Positions 7,572 to 54,246 of a DNA stretch of 64,000 bases are shown here, piece by piece. Source of the DNA: a candidate division FCPU426 bacterium (GTDB lineage Bacteria > Oederibacteriota > JAAXVQ01 > JAUVAV01); contig JBFLYH010000001.1 of the NCBI GenBank assembly GCA_040756875.1, forward strand, positions 96,001-160,000, in the 5' to 3' direction. The notes beneath the pieces were generated by a model. That model was given only the letters and a program-made list of their open reading frames with translations, was not told where the DNA came from and made no database searches. The position numbers were made by a program, and so were the translations under genes. Each line of letters starts with the position of its first letter. The stretch's first letter is position 1.

Positions 7572-7608
7572 AAAAAAATCCCCGGGCTTCCAGGCCCGGG
7601 GATTTTTT
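7572..7608. terminator. bidirectional intrinsic terminator
   Basis: AAAAAAATCCCCGGGC-TTCCAG-GCCCGGGGATTTTTT between convergent genes. Confidence 0.85.
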
Positions 7609-7675
7609 GTTTTAAAAAGAGGGTTCAAACCGGGGGGGATGTTCGCGGAATACGAGCCGTAATCATTTCAGCAAA

Positions 7676-11542: not shown

Positions 11543-12067
11543 TTGCCTCCTACTGCAATCAAGACCATCCGCGATCTGATCTTCTGGGAATACGCCAAAC
11601 TCATATCCCAATCCGCAGGCAAAGGCCGGGACAACTTTGCCTTTGTGATGTTTAAATTCAAGGAACTGCAAAGCAGGGCGATTTCCTGGTCCACGATCCT
11701 CAGGGAAGACCTCAAAACCTCCCGCGATGAATGCGCGTACTGCGGGGCCAAGTCCAACCTCAGCCACGACCACATCGTTCCCAAGCGGGAATGCCACTAC
11801 GACGAGATCCACAACATCGTGGCTGCTTGCAAGTCCTGCAATTCCTCCAAGGGGGACAAGGATTTGATCGAGTGGTATGGCCTTGACCGCCGCGCCGAAA
11901 TCCCCAGGATCGTAATGGGGAAATATCTGAAAATGCTGTACATCTGCCACGAATGCCGGGGGACATTGGCGAAGCGGGATATCAATAAGGATGGGAAGGT
12001 CGATTTGCTGGATTTGGGGTGGATATTCAAGGAGACGTGCGGGGAGAAGGGGAGTGCGCTTAAGTAA
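11543..12067 (+). CDS. HNH endonuclease with C-terminal dockerin/EF-hand-like loop
   Basis: CAYCG, DHIVP and HN.V.ACKSCNSSK motifs; DINKDGKVDLLDL; AGGAGG RBS before the TTG. Confidence 0.85.
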   Translation: MPPTAIKTIRDLIFWEYAKLISQSAGKGRDNFAFVMFKFKELQSRAISWSTILREDLKTSRDECAYCGAKSNLSHDHIVPKRECHYDEIHNIVAACKSCNSSKGDKDLIEWYGLDRRAEIPRIVMGKYLKMLYICHECRGTLAKRDINKDGKVDLLDLGWIFKETCGEKGSALK

Positions 12068-12142
12068 ATAAGTTAACTCCTGGAGTTCCCCTGATCATAG
12101 AATTCATAAAAAACGTAAGGGCGGAAAATTAGGAGGTCTAGA

Positions 12143-13015
12143 GTGAGTGAACGGCTTGAGGAAATATTTAAACTGCCAAAAGACACGCCGCCAAAAGCCC
12201 TTTACCACTACACTTCGCGAGAGGGTCTGCTGGGTATTTTAAAGGAACGGGCTATTTGGGCGACAGATATCATGTGTCTTAACGATTCGATGGAATTTAC
12301 TTATGCGGTCGAAATTGCGCGACCACTTGCACTAGAAATGATTAATAATTGTACGGATGAACAAGAGAAAAATGGATACAGAATGATAAGTAGTTTACTT
12401 GAAGAGAGGAATATAGGGCAATTCCGATCATACATTGTTTCCTTTTCAGAAGAAGGAGATTTATTAAGCCAATGGAGGGGCTATACCCGCGCAGGTGATG
12501 GTTATGCTATTGAATTTAACCCGGATATACTTGAACAACTGATTAGAACTAATATTTTGGAGAACAAGGAGTTCTATCTTGCAAAATGCAGGTATGTATT
12601 AAATGAACAGAAGAAAATTGTGGAAGAAGTACTCGAAAATGCACGAAAGATATCCAAAACTGAGGTAGAAGCAGGAATTCCAATTTATGCGGCTATCGTT
12701 AAAAATTTTCTTATTCCTTTTTTATTCATTGCACCTCTTATCAAACACCCGACCTTTAAGCAAGAACAAGAATGGCGGCTTATTGCCTTCTTAGCTGATG
12801 CGACTAACATACTTCAGTTTAAACCGGGCAAGTCAATGCTGATTCCATACATCTCCTTTAAGTTTGATGAAACGGGGTTGCCTTTTAATAAAATAATACT
12901 TGGCCCAAATCCTCATCCGGAACTTAATCGACGAGTAGTTTTGGAACTTTTAGACAAATATGGTGCTACTAATGCAGTATGCACAAGTTCTTCAATACCA
13001 TATAGGGATTGGTAA
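12143..13015 (+). CDS. DUF2971 domain protein
   Basis: LYHYTS, LND..E, SFSE.GDLLSQWRGY, K.P.F..EQEWR and I.LGP motifs; AT-rich. Confidence 0.85.
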   Translation: MSERLEEIFKLPKDTPPKALYHYTSREGLLGILKERAIWATDIMCLNDSMEFTYAVEIARPLALEMINNCTDEQEKNGYRMISSLLEERNIGQFRSYIVSFSEEGDLLSQWRGYTRAGDGYAIEFNPDILEQLIRTNILENKEFYLAKCRYVLNEQKKIVEEVLENARKISKTEVEAGIPIYAAIVKNFLIPFLFIAPLIKHPTFKQEQEWRLIAFLADATNILQFKPGKSMLIPYISFKFDETGLPFNKIILGPNPHPELNRRVVLELLDKYGATNAVCTSSSIPYRDW

Positions 13016-13109: not shown

Positions 13110-13146
13110 GGGACGTTGTTTAAATGTCAAAATGACCCGCGGCCTC
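13110..13146 (+). repeat. GGGAC hairpin repeat, copy R1
   Basis: GGGACGTTGTTTAAATGTCAAAATGACCCGCGGCCTC. Confidence 0.85.
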
Positions 13147-13148
13147 CC

Positions 13149-13184
13149 CAATTGTGCAAGAGGTGCTTGCACAAATTGCTTAGT
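13149..13184 (+). repeat. extragenic copy of the yhcG internal palindrome
   Basis: CAATTGTGCAAGAGGTGCTTGCACAAATTGCTTAGT matches 13755..13790 at 33/36 nt. Confidence 0.85.
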
Positions 13185-13405
13185 GTAAATGGGGACGTTG
13201 TTTAAATGTCAAAATGTTTACAGTGCTGATATTCACCTGACACCTCCGCCTTTTGCTGGTTGAGCTGCCGGGCTGCTTTCTGGTGTCCCTTTTCCCGCAG
13301 ATGTTTTAACGCCCAATGCCAGTCGCCTGTCCTTCACGACTTATCTCATAAAACCTTTCTCAACTGATGAAAAACGCATTGAAATCCCTCGCCACCGGTC
13401 TAATG
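13184..13405 (+). repeat. 222-bp direct repeat, copy 1 (contains R2; leader of yhcG-1)
   Basis: Two mismatches to 14789..15010 by eye alignment. Confidence 0.9.
13192..13216 (+). repeat. GGGAC hairpin repeat, copy R2
   Basis: GGGACGTTGTTTAAATGTCAAAATG, identical to the R1 core. Confidence 0.85.
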
Positions 13406-13432
13406 GATCAAGAATGTGCGAGGGGGAATATT

Positions 13433-14014
13433 ATGCCCGGCGAAAAAAGAAAGACGCACTTCCAAACCCAGCTCCATAGCCTGCCGTATGATTATGCGCA
13501 AATTCTTGCTGAGATAAAACACAGAATCCATAGTGAACGGTTGCGTGTTGCACGGGCGGCGAATTCTGCCCTGGTTATGCTGTATTGGGACATTGGCAGG
13601 TTAATACTAGGCCGCCAGAAACACGAAGGCTGGGGAACACGTGTCATAGACCGGCTTTCGGCGGATTTAAGGACGTCTTTCCCGGAAATGAATGGTTTGT
13701 CCCCGCGAAATCTTAAATATATGCGTGCGTTTGCCTCGGCATGGCCGAATAGATCAATTGTGCAAGAAGTGCTTGCACAAATTACTTGGTATCATAATCT
13801 TGCTTTGTTGGAAAAATTGAAACCATCAGAAGAAAGGCTGTGGTATGCCCGAAAAAGCCTTGATAACGGGTGGAGTCACAATATACTTGTAATTCAAATC
13901 GAAAGCGGCGCACGCGAACGGAGCGGAAAGGCGCTGCATAATTTCAAAACTACCCTGCCTGCGGAGGATTCGGATCTGGCGGGCCAGGTATTTAAGGACC
14001 CATATGGGTTTTGA
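13433..14014 (+). pseudogene. yhcG: YhcG/DUF1016 N-terminal domain only (3'-truncated, lacks the PD-(D/E)XK nuclease domain)
   Basis: Colinear with 15038..16093 up to FKDPY, then stops (FKDPYGF*). Confidence 0.75.
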
Positions 14015-14076
14015 TCGGGGCCGGAGTTAACTTGTTAACATAGCCAAGAATGGTGCCAGCCGCCATTTCTCTGTTT

Positions 14077-14115
14077 ACTGTGCGGGAAATACTTGCGCAA
14101 ATGACTTGGTACCAT
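14077..14115 (+). repeat. second, degenerate extragenic copy of the yhcG palindromic segment
   Basis: Reads TVREILAQMTWYH versus IVQEVLAQITWYH; 31/39 nt identical to 13757..13795. Confidence 0.7.
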
Positions 14116-14221
14116 GGAGATGCGGGACACTGTGTCCCTGAGATTCATTCAATCAAAACAGCAGGCGTGCTATTATGGGGAATATATTAATTATATTTAG
14201 GCACGGGCTTTATTAAATAAA

Positions 14222-14692
14222 ATGGAGATGAGAATGGAAATACAAATAGAGCCATTGTCTTCCGGAGAACAAGCTCCGCTGGATTTACTGAAGCTTGCTG
14301 ATCCATCTGAAAAAATGGTCGCTTTCTATTTAAGCCAGGGAGAGTGCTTTGTTGCTAAAGAAAGTAATGCTGTGGTGGGAGTTATTATTAGTATGAAAAC
14401 GAAGCCGGATACTTTTGAAATAATGGCCATAGCTGTAAAAACAGAGATGCAGAATAAGGGTATTGGTAAAAGGTTGATTGCTTTTGTACGGGAAAAGGTG
14501 AAAAAAACGGGCGCGAAATATTTGGAAATTGGGACAGGCAATCCCGGTGTGCAACAAATGCTGCTTTATCAAAAATGTGGTTTTAGAATAGTTGGCGTGG
14601 ATTTGGATTATTTCAGAAGAAATCACGATGAAAAAATAATGGTAAATGGCATTGAATGCCGGGATATGATTCGCATGCAAATGGAATTATAA
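14222..14692 (+). CDS. GNAT family N-acetyltransferase
   Basis: QNKGIGK acetyl-CoA motif, IGTGN, YQKCGF; the start may be 14234. Confidence 0.9.
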   Translation: MEMRMEIQIEPLSSGEQAPLDLLKLADPSEKMVAFYLSQGECFVAKESNAVVGVIISMKTKPDTFEIMAIAVKTEMQNKGIGKRLIAFVREKVKKTGAKYLEIGTGNPGVQQMLLYQKCGFRIVGVDLDYFRRNHDEKIMVNGIECRDMIRMQMEL

Positions 14693-14698
14693 AGACTA

Positions 14699-14726
14699 GG
14701 GACGTTTTTTAAATGTCAAAATGTCC
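14699..14726 (+). repeat. GGGAC hairpin repeat, copy R3
   Basis: GGGACGTTTTTTAAATGTCAAAATGTCC, 6 nt after the GNAT stop. Confidence 0.85.
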
Positions 14727-14788
14727 TGCGCTCCAATAATCACCCCCTTTACTCCTCCCTGAATACTTCTGCCCTAAATGTTAATAAT

Positions 14789-15010
14789 TGTAAATGGGGA
14801 CGTTGTTTAAATGTCAAAATGTTTACAGTGCTGATATTCACATGACACCTCCGCCTTTTGCTGGTTGAGCTGCCGGGCTGCTTTCTGGTGTCCCTTTTCC
14901 CGCAGATGTTTTAACGCCCAATGCCAGTCGCCTGTCCTTCACGACTTATCTCATAAAACCTTTCTCAACTGATGAAAAACGCATTGAAATCCCTCGCCGC
15001 CGGTCTAATG
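14789..15010 (+). repeat. 222-bp direct repeat, copy 2 (contains R4 at 14797..14821; leader of yhcG-2)
   Basis: Near-identical to 13184..13405 (offset 1605). Confidence 0.9.
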
Positions 15011-15037
15011 AATTAAAACTGTGCGGAAGGGAATTAT

Positions 15038-16093
15038 ATGCCCGGTGAAAAAGTGAAGGCGCGCTTCCATACCCAGCTCAATGGCCTGCCGTATGATTAT
15101 GCGCAAATTCTTGCTGAGATAAAACACAGAATCCAAAGCGAACGGTTGCGTGTTGTGCGGGCGGCGAATTCTGCCCTGGTCATGCTGTATTGGGACATTG
15201 GCCGCCTTATACTTGGTCGGCAGAAACATGAAGGCTGGGGAACACGCGTGATAGACCGGCTTTCGGAGGACTTGAAGGCGGTTTTTCCGGAAATGAGGGG
15301 TTTGTCCCCGAGAAACCTCAAGTATATGCGGGCTTTTGCCTTGGCCTGGTCTAATAAGGCAATTGTGCAGCAGCTTGCTGCACAATTGCCCTGGTATCAT
15401 AACTGCATGCTTTTGGAAAAAATTAATGCGATCCCCCTGCGTCTATGGTACGCCAAGATGGCGCTCACCCAAGGATGGAGCAGGAATATACTTTCACTAC
15501 AGATCGAAAGCGGTGCATACGAACGGAGCGGAAAAGCGCTGCATAATTTTAAAACTACGCTGCCGGCGGAGGATTCGGACCTGGCGAACCAAGTATTTAA
15601 AGACCCTTATTTATTTGACTTTCTCGGCATGGCTGAGCTTAAAAGAGAAAAGCAGGTCGAACAAGCTTTGGTGGATCATATTCAGAAGTTTTTGCTCGAA
15701 TTGGGCGCGGGGTTTGCTTTTGTCGGGCGGCAGGTTAGATTGGACGTTGGCGGCCAGGATTTCATCATTGACCTGCTTTTCTACCATCTTGCGCTCAGGT
15801 GTTATATCGTTATAGAACTCAAAGCCGTGCCATTTGAACCGGCGTTTGTTGGCCAAATGAACCTATACCTATCCGCTGTTGATGATCGTATGCGGCACGC
15901 GGAGGATAAGCCGACGATCGGGTTGCTGCTGTGCAAAGCAAAAAATCGCTTGATCGTGGAATATGCCCTCCGCGATTTGAAAAGGCCGATCGGTGTGGCG
16001 CGATGGGAAACGAAGATCGTCAGGTCGCTACCTAAAAAGTTTGCTGGGATACTGCCTTCGATCGAGCAGATCGAGGAGGAGTTGAAACGTTAA
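15038..16093 (+). CDS. yhcG: YhcG/DUF1016 family PD-(D/E)XK nuclease
   Basis: LYWDIG, GLSPRNLKYMRAF, KDPYLFDFL, FLLELG.GFAFVGRQ, IDLLFYH, VIELK, GQMNLY and TIGLLLC motifs. Confidence 0.92.
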   Translation: MPGEKVKARFHTQLNGLPYDYAQILAEIKHRIQSERLRVVRAANSALVMLYWDIGRLILGRQKHEGWGTRVIDRLSEDLKAVFPEMRGLSPRNLKYMRAFALAWSNKAIVQQLAAQLPWYHNCMLLEKINAIPLRLWYAKMALTQGWSRNILSLQIESGAYERSGKALHNFKTTLPAEDSDLANQVFKDPYLFDFLGMAELKREKQVEQALVDHIQKFLLELGAGFAFVGRQVRLDVGGQDFIIDLLFYHLALRCYIVIELKAVPFEPAFVGQMNLYLSAVDDRMRHAEDKPTIGLLLCKAKNRLIVEYALRDLKRPIGVARWETKIVRSLPKKFAGILPSIEQIEEELKR

Positions 16094-16164
16094 AGCCTTC
16101 GACAGTAGGTTTATACCAACCCGATTCCCCTGCCTCTCCCATACCCCGTATGCTAAAATGCCTG

Positions 16165-16192
16165 GGGACGTAGTTTGAATGTCCGGATGTCC
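16165..16192 (+). repeat. GGGAC hairpin repeat, copy R5
   Basis: GGGACGTAGTTTGAATGTCCGGATGTCC. Confidence 0.85.
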
Positions 16193-16284
16193 AGCAGTCT
16201 CTCCTGCTCTTTGTGGACTAAAAGATGTCGTATTATTTTAAGATTAAAAGGTTAAAACAGCCGATGAGCATTATAAATATACCA

Positions 16285-17112
16285 ATGAAACATCCCTTGG
16301 TATCTATTTTAGTTTTCCTAATGCTGATCTGTTTAGTCTCAATTACCCCTTCCTCTGCCCGCGACTGGCCTGAGTCCCGCACTGCGACTATCTACTCCCA
16401 AGGCGCCCGCATTCCTTATCTCCCATCCGGCGGCACGGAAAGCAAACCATCCACCTGCCAAGGCGCTTCCACGCAATTGCGGATCACCCAGGTTCTGGCA
16501 AAAATGCCCCGGCACGACGTGGACCTGGGCCGGACTACGCTGACCTTGCTTTCTTTGGATGGCAAGAAGGAGCTGCTTAAAGAGACCTTTACCGAGGTTT
16601 GGGAATGCCTGGGGTACAATCCAACCGCCAAGCGTTATGTCCTGATCACCAAGAATGAACACGGCACCAAAGTCACTTTGCGCGGCTTGGTCTATTTGGA
16701 AGAGAACCCGGCGAGGTTCAAGGATTCGGTGTTTGGAGAAAAACAGTTTGAAGCTGCGGCGTCCTTGCCCGGGCCGGATGGGAACTATCTGGCGCTGATC
16801 GGCGCTCCGGAAGGGGAAGACACCTACAAGCTGTATGTCCTGAATCTGGTCGCGGACAAACTGCAACTCCTGGGCGATGCGCCTGGCCCTCCGCCTCTGA
16901 CCAAGGAAGATTTGGAATGGCCGGAAGCCTTGGACATGATGGCAGCCTGGGAAGCGCCGGAACGGCACTACACTGAGCTGGAACCAGGCATCTGGTCCTT
17001 CACGAACCCGTCCACCCTGCAAGTCAGCTATGGCAAAGACACCTATAAAGCCCGCAATAAAAAGCGCAGCATAAAAACCTGGGATTTAAAAAGCCTGTTC
17101 AAACCAATTTAG
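16285..17112 (+). CDS. secreted hypothetical protein
   Basis: Signal peptide MKHPLVSILVFLMLICLVSITPSSA; the stop codon overlaps repeat R6. Confidence 0.7.
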   Translation: MKHPLVSILVFLMLICLVSITPSSARDWPESRTATIYSQGARIPYLPSGGTESKPSTCQGASTQLRITQVLAKMPRHDVDLGRTTLTLLSLDGKKELLKETFTEVWECLGYNPTAKRYVLITKNEHGTKVTLRGLVYLEENPARFKDSVFGEKQFEAAASLPGPDGNYLALIGAPEGEDTYKLYVLNLVADKLQLLGDAPGPPPLTKEDLEWPEALDMMAAWEAPERHYTELEPGIWSFTNPSTLQVSYGKDTYKARNKKRSIKTWDLKSLFKPI

Positions 17113-17161
17113 GGACGTTGTTTGAATGTCCGGATGTCCCGCGGCCTCGCCTTTTCTCCTC
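17112..17161 (+). repeat. GGGAC hairpin repeat, copy R6
   Basis: GGGACGTTGTTTGAATGTCCGGATGTCCCGCGGCCTCGCCTTTTCTCCTC; 44/50 identical to R7. Confidence 0.85.
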
Positions 17162-17370
17162 AAACTTGAACCCGTAAATGTTCGATTTCCTTTAAGCATG
17201 GGCGCTTCATCCCGGACCCTTTGCGAAAAAGCCGGGAAGGGGAAAAGAACCAAGGGGATTGAGGGTTGACACTGAGAGCGTAATCTTTTATTAATAGTGA
17301 AAACGGGCTGTCCTCGATATAACCTCCGAATCAAACCGGCTGGCCGTAATCAAAGCGCGCGAGGTATAGG

Positions 17371-18474
17371 ATGAGAAAAAATATCTGGGTCATGGGCATG
17401 ATCATGTGGTTGGCCCTTCCTGCCATGGGGCAGGCGGTCACCTTCGGGGAAACCGGCACTGGCACAGCCGGCAGCACGGTGAACGGTTATCTGATGCTGT
17501 GCCAATTCACCTGCCCGGCGGATGGAACCATAAACCGGATAAACTTGAGAGTTGATTATACGAACGGCAGCGGCCGGGTGGCCATTTACTCCAATGCCGG
17601 GGCCGATCAACCCGGCGTGCTGCTGGCTGAAAGCGCTTCCCAGGGCGTCAGCACCGGCTGGAACACTTTTACCGTCGCTTCTACGGCCGTGAGCAATGGA
17701 GCAACCTATTGGCTGGCCTTTCAATTGAATTCCAGCATTACCGGCGTCCGCTATTACACGGATTCAAACCTGAATAAACAGCGGTATTACAATTACGCCT
17801 ATGCCGCTTTTCCGGCCAACTTGTCCGGCAGCCCGCCCAACGGCTCCCTGGCGGCCCGGACCTGCATCTATGCCTTTGACGTCGAAACGCCGACGCCGAC
17901 GCTCACAGCTTCGGCGACCGCGACGCTCTCCGCCACCATTTCCCCCACGGCGACCATCACTCCCACTGTTACTGACACGCCCACCCTGACCTCCACGGCC
18001 ACGCCCTCGGATTCGCCGACCCGCACCGTCACCACGACCACAACGCCCACAGGCACGATCACCCCGACCGCGACCATCACCTTGACCTCCACCATCAGCC
18101 CGACTTTTACGATCAGCCCGACCGCAACCGTTTCCCCGATGGTCACGGCAACCGTGTTGCCCGCCTCCAGCCTGACCTCCACCCCGAACCTCCTGGCGGA
18201 GGTATTGTTAAACGGGAAGCAGGCGATGGTTTTCCCCAACCCCGCCCGGGATGAGGTCCGGTTCCTGGTGCATCTGGACCGGGCGGCAACCCTGCGGCTG
18301 GACCTGTTCAATTCGAACGGTGAAAGGATCGCGGGCCTGGACGCCGCTTTGCCGGCCGGCCGGGGGCAGGTCATTCAATGGGATTGCCGCGATGTGGCGC
18401 CCGGCGTATACCACGTCCGCCTGCTGAAGGACGGGCAGGCCTGGGAAAAGCTAAAAGTGGCGGTCGTAAGGTAG
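17371..18474 (+). CDS. secreted protein with long Thr/Pro linker and T9SS-like CTD
   Basis: Signal peptide; beta-sandwich N-domain (PG.LLA, YWLA); TPT/TISPT repeats; VFPNP...W...VAPGVY...KVAVVR tail. Confidence 0.8.
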   Translation: MRKNIWVMGMIMWLALPAMGQAVTFGETGTGTAGSTVNGYLMLCQFTCPADGTINRINLRVDYTNGSGRVAIYSNAGADQPGVLLAESASQGVSTGWNTFTVASTAVSNGATYWLAFQLNSSITGVRYYTDSNLNKQRYYNYAYAAFPANLSGSPPNGSLAARTCIYAFDVETPTPTLTASATATLSATISPTATITPTVTDTPTLTSTATPSDSPTRTVTTTTTPTGTITPTATITLTSTISPTFTISPTATVSPMVTATVLPASSLTSTPNLLAEVLLNGKQAMVFPNPARDEVRFLVHLDRAATLRLDLFNSNGERIAGLDAALPAGRGQVIQWDCRDVAPGVYHVRLLKDGQAWEKLKVAVVR

Positions 18475-18512
18475 AGAAACAGGGTGGTGAATAGAGACGT
18501 AGTTTCTGAATA

Positions 18513-18562
18513 GGGACCTGGTTTGAATGTCCGGATGTCCCGCGGTCTTGCCTTCTCCCCTC
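18513..18562 (+). repeat. GGGAC hairpin repeat, copy R7 (preceded by a partial copy at 18494..18505)
   Basis: GGGACCTGGTTTGAATGTCCGGATGTCCCGCGGTCTTGCC; upstream GAGACGTAGTTT. Confidence 0.8.
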
Positions 18563-18674
18563 GTGTCTAAATCGGGAACTCCGGTAGTACAAAAAATCGG
18601 GAGACACCAAGATTGAGAACAGAGTCTGTTTGCTGGTTTAGAAGAAGCGCGTGGAAATGAGCGGCGCGGGGGGA

Positions 18675-19280
18675 CTAGCTCCAGGTGAATTCGAGGACGC
18701 AATGCGATTTGCCCTGCCGGATGCATTGCAATTGCCGGGCCCGGACGCTCTCGGCGCCGGAGTATTGCAGCGCCGTGGAGACCCAGCCTTCGCAACCCAC
18801 GCAGACGGATTGTTTCCAGACCTGCGTATCGTGCATGTGATATACCACCCGTTTGTCTGCGACCTCGGCCACGCTCATGCTTCCGGGCGTGAAATAGCGT
18901 TTGAAAATAGCCGGCACCCGTTTGGCGATGAACAGGGGAGTGCCGATCTTTAAAAAAATCGTCAGGACCGTGCTGAGATCGTGAAAAGCCGAAAAAGCGG
19001 CGAGTTCCCGAAAAAGTCGGGGATCCCCGTCATTTAAGGAAGCCAGGTAGTCGTAGGTTTGAAGAAAGAGGCGGCCCGGCAAACGGGAGACAGACAGCAC
19101 CTTGTCCGAGGACCAGTACTCGGCGTCCTGCGGGGGCAGTTGGGCCAAAAAACGTTTATACGCCTCCTGGCCCAGGCTTTCTTGAAACCAATGCCTGCCC
19201 CCCAGGAGCAGGGTGGCGCGAAAAAGCGGGTCTGCCATAGGCGGCGGCTTTCCCTTCTCTGCAGTATCTGCCTTATTCAT
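18675..19280 (-). CDS. DUF2378/TIGR02265-like (V4R-fold) protein, paralogue 3
   Basis: C-terminal QCIRQGKSHCVLEFTW; FLKIGTP.F..KR...F..YF.PG. Confidence 0.6.
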   Translation of the reverse strand: MNKADTAEKGKPPPMADPLFRATLLLGGRHWFQESLGQEAYKRFLAQLPPQDAEYWSSDKVLSVSRLPGRLFLQTYDYLASLNDGDPRLFRELAAFSAFHDLSTVLTIFLKIGTPLFIAKRVPAIFKRYFTPGSMSVAEVADKRVVYHMHDTQVWKQSVCVGCEGWVSTALQYSGAESVRARQLQCIRQGKSHCVLEFTWS

Positions 19281-19387
19281 AGTAACGTACGCGCGGATGA
19301 AACTTAAACAGATAATCTTTGTTAATTATTTACGTCTCCCTTAATCCGCCTGCCCCTAAAATACACAAACCTAAATCAAATGCAGTC

Positions 19388-19873
19388 TCACCGGAGCTTA
19401 AGCAGCTTTACGATATCTCCTTCAATCTGGAGCGGCCGGACAGCCGGGGCATAGCGCTTGAACGGCTTGCCGTCCCGGCTGATCAGGAACTTGGTGAAGT
19501 TCCACTTGATCCTGCCTCCGAAGGGGCCTCCGGGCAGGGCTTTTTTCAGGTAGGCGAACACTGGGTGGGTCTTCTTGCCGTTCACGTCAATCAATCCGCT
19601 CAACTGGAAAGTCACCCCGAAATTCACTTTGCAGACCTGCACGACGGTTTTATTGGTCTCGGGTTCCTGCCCGAGAAACTGGTTGCAGGGAAACCCGAGC
19701 ACGACCAGGCCGTGGTCCTTATATTTTTGGTGCAACTGCTCAAGTTCGACGAACTGGGGGGCCAGGCCGCATTTCGTGGCTGTATTGACCACCAGCACCA
19801 CCTTGCCCTTGTACTCGCTCAGGTTTAAAGTCCTGCCGATCGTATCGCGGAAAGATAAATCGTAGAATTCCAT
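19388..19873 (-). CDS. gpx: glutathione peroxidase (Cys-type)
   Basis: GKVVLVVNTATKCG, LGFPCNQF..QEP and IKWNFTKFLI motifs. Confidence 0.95.
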   Translation of the reverse strand: MEFYDLSFRDTIGRTLNLSEYKGKVVLVVNTATKCGLAPQFVELEQLHQKYKDHGLVVLGFPCNQFLGQEPETNKTVVQVCKVNFGVTFQLSGLIDVNGKKTHPVFAYLKKALPGGPFGGRIKWNFTKFLISRDGKPFKRYAPAVRPLQIEGDIVKLLKLR

Positions 19874-19996
19874 GGTTAACACCCCGGTTGGTGATGGTTG
19901 TATGCAATAGCCTGTAATACTTGGACACCCATTATATGCCTTGGCCGTGATTTAAACCGCGTTATTCCGCCGGAAGGGTGCCGGCGTTGATAAACC

Positions 19997-20035
19997 GGGA
20001 CGTTATTTATGCGTCCGCATGACCCGTGTTTCGCC
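19997..20035 (+). repeat. GGGAC hairpin repeat, divergent copy R8
   Basis: GGGACGTTATTTATGCGTCCGCATGACCCGTGTTTCGCC. Confidence 0.7.
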
Positions 20036-53191: not shown

Positions 53192-53329
53192 ATGGAACCG
53201 AACGACGACAGCCGGGCCTGGCGGCGGCGCCAGATCATCGAAGGCGTCCAAAAGATTCTTTCCGGCCTCTTCCGGCTGGGGCTGATGGCCCTGCTCCTGT
53301 ATTTGATCTTCAAGTATTTCGCCAAATGA
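53192..53329 (+). CDS. small (45 aa) single-TM protein
   Basis: AAGGA RBS; MEPNDDSRAWRRRQIIEGVQKILSGLFRLGLMALLLYLIFKYFAK; ATGA overlap with xerD. Confidence 0.55.
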   Translation: MEPNDDSRAWRRRQIIEGVQKILSGLFRLGLMALLLYLIFKYFAK

Positions 53330-54246
53330 AGGCGCCCGCTTCCGAATCCCGAAGAACCGCTTCTGATCCCGCCTGGCTGCAGGACTTTTTCAATTATTTG
53401 CGCGCGGAAAAAGGCTTGGCGCCATTGACCCTCTCGGCTTACCGGCAGGACATCGACCACTACCTGGGTTTTCTGGACGCCCGCCGCGTGGCGTTTGATC
53501 CCTGTCTGCCTCCGGACCGGGAGACGATCCAGCTTTTTCTGGCGCAACTTCAATCCCAGGCCAAGGCGTCGGCCACCATCGTGCGCGCGTTGGTGTCCCT
53601 GCGCTCCCTGCACCGGTTTCTCAAGGAGGAAGGCGTGGCGGAGCGAGACCCTACCGAGGATTTCGAGTCCTATCGGCTGTGGAAAAAACTGCCCTCGGTC
53701 TTGAGCGTGGACGAGGTGGGGCGGCTGCTCCGGGCGCCGGAACTGACGGCGCGCAACGGCTTGCGGGACCGGGCCATGCTGGAGCTGCTCTACGCCACCG
53801 GTTTGCGCGTTTCCGAACTGGTGTCGCTCCGGTCGGGCCAAATCAACTGGGAAGAAGGCTTCCTGCGCGTCCAGGGCAAGGGGCGCAGGGAACGGCTGGT
53901 GCCAATCGGAAGGCCGGCCCTGCTCCTGGCGCGGCGGTATCTGCAGGAACGCCCGCCGGCCGGAGACGAGGCGCCGTTGTTTATCGCCCGCGGCCAGCGC
54001 GGTTTCTCGCGGGTTGGTTTTTGGAAGCTGCTGCGCCGCTATGCCCGGCTGGCCGGAATCGAAAAGCACCTGTCACCCCATACGCTGCGGCATTCTTTTG
54101 CCACCCATTTGCTGGCAGGCGGAGCTGACTTGCGCCTGGTCCAGGAAATGCTCGGCCATGTCAACATCAGCACCACCCAGATCTACACCCACGTGGACCG
54201 CCGTCGCTTGCAGCAGGTGCACAAACAGTTCCATCCGCGACCATAG
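53326..54246 (+). CDS. xerD: site-specific tyrosine recombinase XerD
   Basis: EKGL...T..AY..D, RDRAMLELLYATGLRVSEL, SPHTLRHSFATHLL.GGADLR.VQEMLGH..ISTTQIYTH, FHPR. Confidence 0.92.
   Translation: MKAPASESRRTASDPAWLQDFFNYLRAEKGLAPLTLSAYRQDIDHYLGFLDARRVAFDPCLPPDRETIQLFLAQLQSQAKASATIVRALVSLRSLHRFLKEEGVAERDPTEDFESYRLWKKLPSVLSVDEVGRLLRAPELTARNGLRDRAMLELLYATGLRVSELVSLRSGQINWEEGFLRVQGKGRRERLVPIGRPALLLARRYLQERPPAGDEAPLFIARGQRGFSRVGFWKLLRRYARLAGIEKHLSPHTLRHSFATHLLAGGADLRLVQEMLGHVNISTTQIYTHVDRRRLQQVHKQFHPRP

Follow-up and report, generated by a model that had tools for sequence, protein, structure and literature searches.

Genes that resemble those of the tyrosine transposases associated with repetitive extragenic palindromes (REPs; the enzymes, RAYTs) and are flanked by long inverted repeats have been named TIRtrons, and their products TIRYTs (Di Nocera, De Gregorio & Rocco 2013, PMC3733652). 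As described there, the terminal inverted repeats (TIRs) of these units share the motif GGGGWSAS, and some of them form moderately abundant dispersed families, whose members are single, dimeric or grouped (PMC3733652). TIRYTs are reported from many phyla (PMC3733652, PMC6006769), and most of them are assigned to subclass 2.1 of TnpA_REP, with a Bac_DnaA_C/helix-turn-helix (HTH) tail (Quentin et al. 2018, PMC6006769), the GGGG motif being described as unlike the DnaA box (PMC6006769). REPs proper are described as stable palindromic hairpins with a GTAG/CGTC tag that are recognised as folded single strands (PMC8266576). Members of subclass 2.1 have also been linked to the procA (prochlorosin) gene arrays of marine picocyanobacteria in a preprint which proposes diversifying recombination, and a later author note to it withdraws the claim of causality (Laurenceau et al., 10.1101/2020.03.09.984088). 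The literature searched on RAYT, TnpAREP or HUH enzymes with cassettes, integrons or genomic islands contained no report in which arrays of TIRYT repeats are described as junctions of cassettes. The 64-kb stretch analysed here (the window), from a candidate division FCPU426 bacterium, contains eight short repeats (R1–R8, labelled in order of position) in an array of accessory genes, and these repeats are probably orphan solo copies of the TIR, ~25–33 nt in length, of a TIRtron encoding a TIRYT.

The genome that contains the window (G000) measures 3.22 Mb, with a GC content of 60% and a marker-gene completeness of 100%. The 19-nt core GGGACGTWGTTTRAATGTC occurs in the window at 13110, 13192, 14699, 14797, 16165, 17112 and 18513, each time with 0–2 mismatches and on the plus strand, where 0.03 matches would be expected by chance and none of 100 shuffles gave seven. 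The eighth copy counted by the first-pass annotation (R8, at 19997) contains four mismatches and gives an nhmmer E of 6 by itself; it is a decayed copy, accepted as an old member of the same repeat family (family A) because both of its flanks, GATRAACC on the left and ATGACCCG on the right, match those of R1. Core matching and an nhmmer profile reveal no further family A copy in the window, in line with the earlier statement that every copy is on the plus strand and that none was seen elsewhere in the window. Of the consensus given with that statement, the tail CCCGCGG is confined to R1, R6 and R7. Family A has the layout GGGACGT-TGTTTAAA-TGTCAAAA-TG, and its putative solo TIRs in the window are as follows.

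13110..13134, plus strand: R1, family A solo TIR (GGGACGT + TGTTTAAA + TGTCAAAA + TG), left flank GATGAACC, 94 nt past the DUF2971 stop
13192..13216, plus strand: R2, family A solo TIR, 8 nt inside the start of the duplicated yhcG-1 unit
14699..14723, plus strand: R3, family A solo TIR, 6 nt past the GNAT stop
14797..14821, plus strand: R4, family A solo TIR, 8 nt inside the start of the yhcG-2 unit
16165..16189, plus strand: R5, family A solo TIR, TGTCCGGA variant, 71 nt past the yhcG-2 stop
17112..17136, plus strand: R6, family A solo TIR, whose first G completes the TAG stop of the open reading frame (ORF) 16225–17112
18513..18537, plus strand: R7, family A solo TIR with two mismatches, 38 nt past the stop of 17371–18474
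19997..20021, plus strand: R8, decayed family A copy with four core mismatches and the flanks of R1, upstream of the minus-strand GSHPx gene

The gaps from an upstream stop codon to the repeat (94, 6, 71, −1 and 38 nt), which reproduce the distances reported before, the TAG overlap included, place five copies 0–94 nt past a gene end.

The assignment of these repeats rests on a locus ~920 kb away on the same contig, C1, where the genome encodes its two Y1_Tnp genes, ~6 kb apart.

C1:1033649–1034659 (L001 7650–8660), minus strand: Y1-A, 336 amino acids (aa), intact
G000:C1:1039783–1040793 (L001 13784–14794): Y1-B, 336 aa, second TIRtron, 42% identical to Y1-A

Y1-A lies between two family A copies in inverted orientation, the first ending 50 nt before the ATG and the second covering the last codons; as an inverted repeat they match at 24 of 26 positions, with one arm at −74 relative to the ATG and the other on the 3′ end of the gene. 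Judged by sequence, the repeats of the window are thus the TIR of Y1-A, which supports the earlier guess of an HUH Y1 enzyme serving them, with action in trans as its presumed mode. Both proteins match Pfam Y1_Tnp (E 8e-11 for Y1-A and 4e-11 for Y1-B) and score 79.8 and 75.6 bits, respectively, on the NCBIfam model REP_Tyr_transpos, where the cut-off is 80. Their alignment contains the motifs NHVHLLL/NHIHLLL and RYIHLNP (NHVHLLL and RYIHLNP in Y1-A), within which we take the catalytic residues to lie. Residues 247–302 of Y1-A match Bac_DnaA_C with an E of 4.8e-6, and NCBIfam DnaA models match the same stretch weakly; a phmmer search of Y1-A against the PDB sequences gave no match at E ≤ 0.01.

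Y1-B is flanked by an inverted repeat of its own, family B (GGGGCCGGAGTCAACTTATCAACTTAAG), which has ~12 copies co-localised with the family A clusters, including one in the window at 14019–14039. Family B copies directly abut family A copies at C2:199669/199638 and C3:164305/164327. Next to each TIRtron comes an 89-nt segment that the two loci share (98% identical; L001 ~7576–7664 and 13672–13760, or G000:C1:1033576–1033664 and 1039672–1039760), and after it a gene for a protein with a type IX secretion system (T9SS) tail, as if a module of Y1 gene plus surface protein had been duplicated; in the related genome G003, TIR copies also precede tandem paralogues of T9SS proteins (L045).

Of 41 related genomes that were searched, 30 encode homologous Y1 genes, and at 26 of the 32 homologous loci examined the gene lies between TIRs that have 20 or more matching bases. 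Nearly all of these 26 TIRs begin with GGGGAC, GGGGTC or GGTGCC, and 14 of them contain a direct repeat of period 8 (two 8-mers with at least 75% identity), which reaches P ≤ 0.05 against shuffles in 12 of the 26; three pairs of loci are near-duplicates, leaving ~23 independent TIR families. Each homologous enzyme carries its own TIR, and about half of the TIRs are built as a GGGRMCG head followed by two direct 8-mers. As compared with the GGGGWSAS motif, the family A head GGGGACGT fits at six of eight positions and family B reads GGGGCCGG, while several homologous TIRs fit fully or nearly (e.g. GGGGTCAG and GGGGACAT). The genome G006 also contains 65-nt 'empty TIRtron' doublets, that is, two inverted TIRs 11 nt apart, in three near-identical copies (L067 7–71 and 1338–1402, G006:C136), which would fold as long hairpins in the manner of REPINs.

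The core had been read in the first-pass annotation as a hairpin kept by pairing, with a G:T pair becoming G:C in R8. Neither point holds, as the DNA folds of R1–R8 (−2.1 to −4.8 kcal/mol; z from +0.24 to −2.21, below −2 in one of eight) are at the level of shuffled sequence, with predicted pairings that are inconsistent among the copies, and the change in R8 affects one side only. In the alignment of 26 family A copies, none of the seven pairs changes on both sides, covariation is 0.102 against a shuffled mean of 0.103, and GTAG is absent from both ends. None of the 26 related TIRs folds better than its own shuffles. A hairpin as the functional or recognised core is rejected on these weak folds and the lack of covariation, many related TIR families sharing instead the head and two 8-mers. 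An RNA family identity is likewise rejected, since Rfam at its gathering threshold gives no match in the window.

These results bear on the possibility that the repeats are passive REP-like elements that spread long ago and act at the RNA or structural level, as stabilisers of 3′ untranslated regions, weak terminators or protein-binding sites, with their clustering in islands reflecting only a preference for AT-rich targets in a genome of 60% GC. Most copies indeed lie 0–94 nt past the stop of a co-oriented gene, which is described as the usual place of REPs (PMC3733652). The repeat itself is AT-rich, all clusters have low GC, and the bases downstream of the repeat are mildly pyrimidine-rich (0.57, against 0.47 upstream); orphan copies also persist in G001, the only related genome of the same genus, which lacks a close orthologue of Y1-A. 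A terminator or stabiliser would, however, have to work without structure, the hairpin being no better than shuffled sequence and Rfam finding nothing, and the breakpoints of duplications and truncations described below coincide with copies, while 11 of 29 tabulated copies are not behind a co-oriented gene. A purely passive role is accordingly rated as quite improbable, and the preferred reading remains that of orphan TIR copies.

Throughout the genome, an nhmmer profile built from 24 clear copies finds 28 family A copies at E ≤ 0.13, which lie on either strand and group into ~9 clusters. In the table of copies, 28 of the 29 rows have a local GC of 0.40–0.56, a range as low as that of only 18.3% of the 3-kb windows of the genome, and a co-oriented ORF ends at most 216 nt upstream in 18 of the 29. 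Nearly all copies thus lie in low-GC accessory islands, and the scatter through core operons that had been named beforehand as a refuting pattern is not seen. A second co-oriented array is located at C2:196–199.6 kb, where five to six copies and all genes are on the minus strand; its cargo comprises BrnT/CopG, Gp49/HI1420, a zinc-type alcohol dehydrogenase (ADH) and a 265-aa gene. Other family A clusters adjoin reverse transcriptases, a SLATT protein, type I restriction genes, HigB/HTH, Fic, DUF4238 and T9SS-tail proteins. Genes of a defence type beside family A include a reverse transcriptase with a SLATT_5 protein (L002 8758–10905) and two adjacent reverse transcriptases of 692 and 439 aa (L007 10954–14345). 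At L004 (G000:C1:826472–828981), three variants resembling family A (GGGACGTAATTAAAATAAC) are interleaved with three family B copies and other short repeats, and comparison of the islands with themselves reveals further multi-copy repeat families of 60–120 nt (e.g. C3:165770–165876, 168032–168139, 175414–175653 and 291289–291361).

A sequence model made from 26 copies has 27 matches in this genome, five each in G001 and G004, two in G005, one in G006 and three weak ones in G035, while the remaining 35 of the 41 searched genomes have none. Family A has thus expanded in this lineage. The core gives seven single matches in metagenome contigs, without the conserved NNNATG tail and without a Y1 homologue beside them, and seven single matches in reference genomes of taxa that are unrelated as judged by their titles; both sets are treated as chance, so that the public collections yield no other carrier of the repeat, with the limit that these scans may omit records of the same genome or of a very near one.

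The genes of the array and its left border are as follows.

11543–12067, plus strand: HNH endonuclease gene, on the left side of the low-GC island, directly before a weak family B copy
12064..12084, minus strand: weak family B-like copy with four mismatches, just upstream of the DUF2971 gene
12143..13015, plus strand: DUF2971 protein, cargo, in a stretch of 40% GC
13367..14014, plus strand: yhcG-1, cargo, of which only the DUF1016 N-terminal domain is left, truncated 14 nt before a family B copy
14019..14039, plus strand: family B solo TIR (GGCCGGAGTTAACTTGTTAAC), repeat of the second TIRYT gene, at the truncation point of yhcG-1
14222..14692, plus strand: GNAT acetyltransferase (Pfam), cargo
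15038..16093, plus strand: yhcG-2, cargo, full-length DUF1016/YhcG PD-(D/E)XK nuclease
16225..17112, plus strand: 295-aa protein, cargo, with no Pfam match
17371..18474, plus strand: Thr/Pro-rich protein, cargo, with a T9SS C-terminal sorting domain
19388..19882, minus strand: glutathione peroxidase (GSHPx) gene, between R7 and R8, on the strand opposite to the repeats

The interval from 10 to 21 kb has a GC content of 40–57% per kb bin, apart from 59.5% in the 18–19 kb bin, and the surrounding DNA has 59–65%. The cargo had been called unrelated, which is correct only in part, as two units carry yhcG paralogues that are 85% identical over 830 nt. The conserved coding stretch IVQQ..AQ.PW of the two yhcG genes contains a near-perfect palindrome of 11–12 bp (13757–13787 and 15361–15392), whose stem sequence differs between yhcG-1 and yhcG-2, and fragments of this stretch lie at 13149–13178, in the spacer between R1 and R2, and at ~14088–14120, just past the family B copy. 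The DUF2971 cargo has no homologue in the 14 other genomes of the order. The array is a TIR-studded accessory island, and its repeats mark joints between imported accessory genes.

The repeats behave as rearrangement breakpoints. The segment duplicated with yhcG begins 8 nt ahead of R2 and of R4 and runs to 14 nt short of the family B copy, and a 466-nt tandem unit at C1:1273194–1274131 corresponds to exactly one repeat-to-repeat period. The stretch is covered by the sequencing run X1, possibly the source sample, and almost not at all by two further runs from that study. The X1 contigs break where the repeats lie, and their loose ends correspond to other copies of this genome. One X1 contig joins 12080 to 13106 and so skips DUF2971 between the weak family B copy and R1; this joint, with 25 letters on its shorter side and a single contig, may be an alignment artefact and is not counted, and no circle or empty-site junction is seen in the X1 contigs. 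G001 cannot be used as a strain comparison because it is too diverged: DNA matches to the island are sparse, and tblastn of the ORFs of the window against a 20-kb G001 locus gives one clear gene match (70% amino-acid identity). At the G001 locus that corresponds to the right edge of the island, the GSHPx sequence breaks off after ~30 codons, exactly at a TIR doublet that has a copy resembling family A next to it. The unit-length duplications, this cut gene and the arrays in relatives are indirect hints that recombination has taken place at the repeats.

These observations raise the possibility of an integron counterpart based on an HUH enzyme, a platform on which Y1-A would nick two co-oriented TIRs, release a single-stranded circle with one TIR and rejoin it at another TIR, so that arrays would be built and shuffled cassette by cassette at sites specific to each species, a trait of sedentary chromosomal integrons. 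The same kind of nick and release is used by HUH Rep proteins to resolve tandem origins. Consistent with such a platform are the eight co-oriented copies in the window with their mostly single-gene spacing, the array at C2 with copies and genes all on one strand, the tandem duplications of unit length, and the mixed composition of the cargo (40–60% GC per kb). Relatives contribute further points, as G001 contains an array of ~9 co-oriented copies of its own TIR family and G003 a co-oriented trio together with inverted doublets. Single-gene modules also lie beside lineage-specific TIRs: the G006 homologue of the 295-aa cargo protein is 62% identical, with homology limited to the gene and different neighbours, and has a TIR doublet of the G006 family 54 nt upstream in a genome with only ~11 TIR places; the 265-aa gene of the C2 array has no neighbour synteny in five other genomes, and its G013 homologue (75% identical) has a TIR-like doublet ~120 nt upstream; and in G003 the best match to GNAT, only 31% identical, is found within a TIR array of that genome.

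Against this platform, a TIR is detectable at only three of 16 loci of cargo homologues, detection being limited to the ~26 TIR families taken from Y1 loci. None is found at any of the seven yhcG loci, at the 265-aa gene in G014, G011, G006 and G001, of which G006 and G001 have known TIR families, or at the 295-aa gene in G075 and G059. Self-comparison reveals no unit common to the arrays of the genome, and the G001 array, with genes on both strands and fragments (a piece of an IS3-type integrase and a 98-aa T9SS tail), resembles debris rather than tidy cassettes. The R7–R8 interval holds two minus-strand genes, a 201-aa ORF and GSHPx, the latter with a recognisable remnant at the matching G001 locus. 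To these are added the missing circle and empty-site junctions, the single joint with its 25 letters, and the distance of the array from the enzyme gene. The platform as a whole is hence considered unlikely, as is an active movement of TIR-to-TIR units by the Y1 enzyme, and it is doubtful that the TIRYT and its TIRs amount to an HUH-based integron counterpart, in which solo TIRs would be nick-and-join sites and single-stranded circles would be released and reinserted at other TIRs. If true, that reading would explain why the same orphan genes occur beside different lineage-specific TIR families in different genera.

The array may also be compared with a divergent integron array or a CALIN (an attC cluster without integrase) served by a tyrosine recombinase, as it contains co-oriented repeats at gene 3′ ends together with toxin–antitoxin and small accessory cargo, and the window encodes a tyrosine recombinase, which the first-pass annotation had not mentioned.

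53326–54246, plus strand: XerD (TIGR02225, 341 bits; cut-off 329.6), which looks like a housekeeping enzyme

This protein and a XerC-like protein (326 bits) are the only two tyrosine recombinases of the genome (Phage_integrase genes), and they score 125–136 bits on the integron-integrase model TIGR02249, where the cut-off is 265; no integron integrase is encoded in this complete genome. Integron attC sites are ~57–141 nt in length and contain RYYYAAC and GTTRRRY boxes, neither of which is seen by eye in the 26-copy alignment, while the conserved unit here is ~25 nt, forms no stable or covarying hairpin and demonstrably serves as the TIR of a Y1 gene. The earlier view that the repeats are not attC sites is upheld by the lack of IntI, of the boxes and of a supported hairpin; an attC or integron identity is rejected on all three counts, and a divergent integron is extremely unlikely.

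According to the preferred reading, the TIRtron would be a one-gene unit similar to an insertion sequence (IS), and the TIRYT a RAYT-like Y1/HUH single-stranded DNA transposase of TnpA_REP subclass 2.1 with a C-terminal DnaA_C-like HTH. Y1-A would act in trans, with its HTH reading the two 8-bp boxes and its HUH/Tyr centre nicking and rejoining a single strand next to the head, as the analogy of RAYT/REP and IS200/IS605 systems suggests. Copies would thereby be seeded at the joints of imported DNA, and later rearrangements would break at co-oriented copies, with the enzyme, or else ordinary homologous recombination, duplicating, deleting or replacing the unit between one TIR and the next.

Several points weigh against this reading. 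The tabulated gene context rests on a crude longest-ORF rule (the R8 row being corrected from Pfam, as the gene is on the other strand), and by this rule 11 of the 29 copies are not behind a co-oriented gene. The Bac_DnaA_C match of Y1-A reaches 26.9 bits, below the Pfam cut-off of 31.5; 12 of the 26 related TIRs have no evident direct repeat, and in the 5′ TIR of Y1-A itself the boxes are identical at only five of eight positions (P = 0.19). The orientation of copies agrees with GC skew in five clusters and disagrees in four, which leaves replication-strand targeting of the IS200/IS605 kind unsupported. G001 retains five copies resembling family A with no close orthologue of Y1-A (the best is 42% identical); copies can therefore outlast the enzyme, and they may be inert. 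For Y1-A, binding, nicking and a role in trans are proposed by analogy only, because the available text of PMC3733652 and PMC6006769 reports no TIRYT biochemistry.

TIRYTs being widespread, with homologues in most of the related genomes, this genome offers a clean test system, in which one intact enzyme gene is accompanied by ~28 near-identical targets and by a second, orthogonal enzyme–repeat pair in the same cell. The head and two 8-mers are a concrete candidate for the target of the DnaA-like HTH, and as copies recur at the boundaries of duplications, truncations and single-gene modules, the shuffling of accessory genes by Y1 enzymes becomes a testable question. If such shuffling is false, family A is one more REP-like family, and arrays of this kind should no longer be annotated as integrons.

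As compared with sedentary chromosomal integrons and CALINs, the array shares co-oriented, species-specific repeats at gene 3′ ends, mostly single-gene units, common toxin–antitoxin cargo and a mixed cargo composition. It differs in having no IntI, attC boxes or folded bottom-strand structure, in an enzyme of the HUH/Y1 type in place of a tyrosine recombinase, and in arrays that are not adjacent to the enzyme gene, where cassette movement is only a candidate. IS200/IS605 elements have subterminal hairpin ends without TIRs and a TnpA of ~130–150 aa. They share with the system described here the Y1/HUH catalytic domain, a presumed single-stranded nick-and-join, and co-oriented sites on one strand, the geometry used for their left and right ends, whereas the ends here are inverted repeats without a supported hairpin, the proteins have 336 aa, and the IS200 model (NCBIfam transpos_IS200) gives 16.2 bits for Y1-B against a cut-off of 55 and no match for Y1-A.

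The REP/RAYT systems (REPtrons and REPINs) are similar in their domesticated-looking Y1/HUH gene, their flanks of short inverted repeats, a repeat dispersed mostly just past stop codons, and a separate repeat family for each enzyme. The repeats here, however, have no hairpin beyond chance and number tens of copies rather than hundreds, and the enzyme is twice as long and carries a putative HTH tail. The procA arrays, as far as described in the preprint, combine what is probably the same enzyme subclass with co-oriented, regularly spaced arrays of accessory genes, but inverted repeats were not found there, and the link in the present genome consists of dispersed TIR copies and not of adjacent transposase genes (10.1101/2020.03.09.984088). 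The closest resemblance is to TIRtrons. The head and two direct 8-mers are not mentioned in the text of PMC3733652, whose figures may show TIR layouts; almost every copy here is solo, and within accessory islands the copies form co-oriented arrays spaced at gene-sized intervals, and the head GGGGACGT is near GGGGWSAS at six of eight positions only. The likeness comprises a RAYT-like Y1/HUH protein whose C terminus weakly matches a DnaA_C-like HTH, inverted repeats of which one lies 50–120 nt before the ATG and one over the 3′ end, and a TIR that is also a moderately abundant dispersed family of singles, pairs and groups, and this genome probably provides a new example of a known, barely studied class, orphan copies of a TIRtron TIR distributed through accessory islands.

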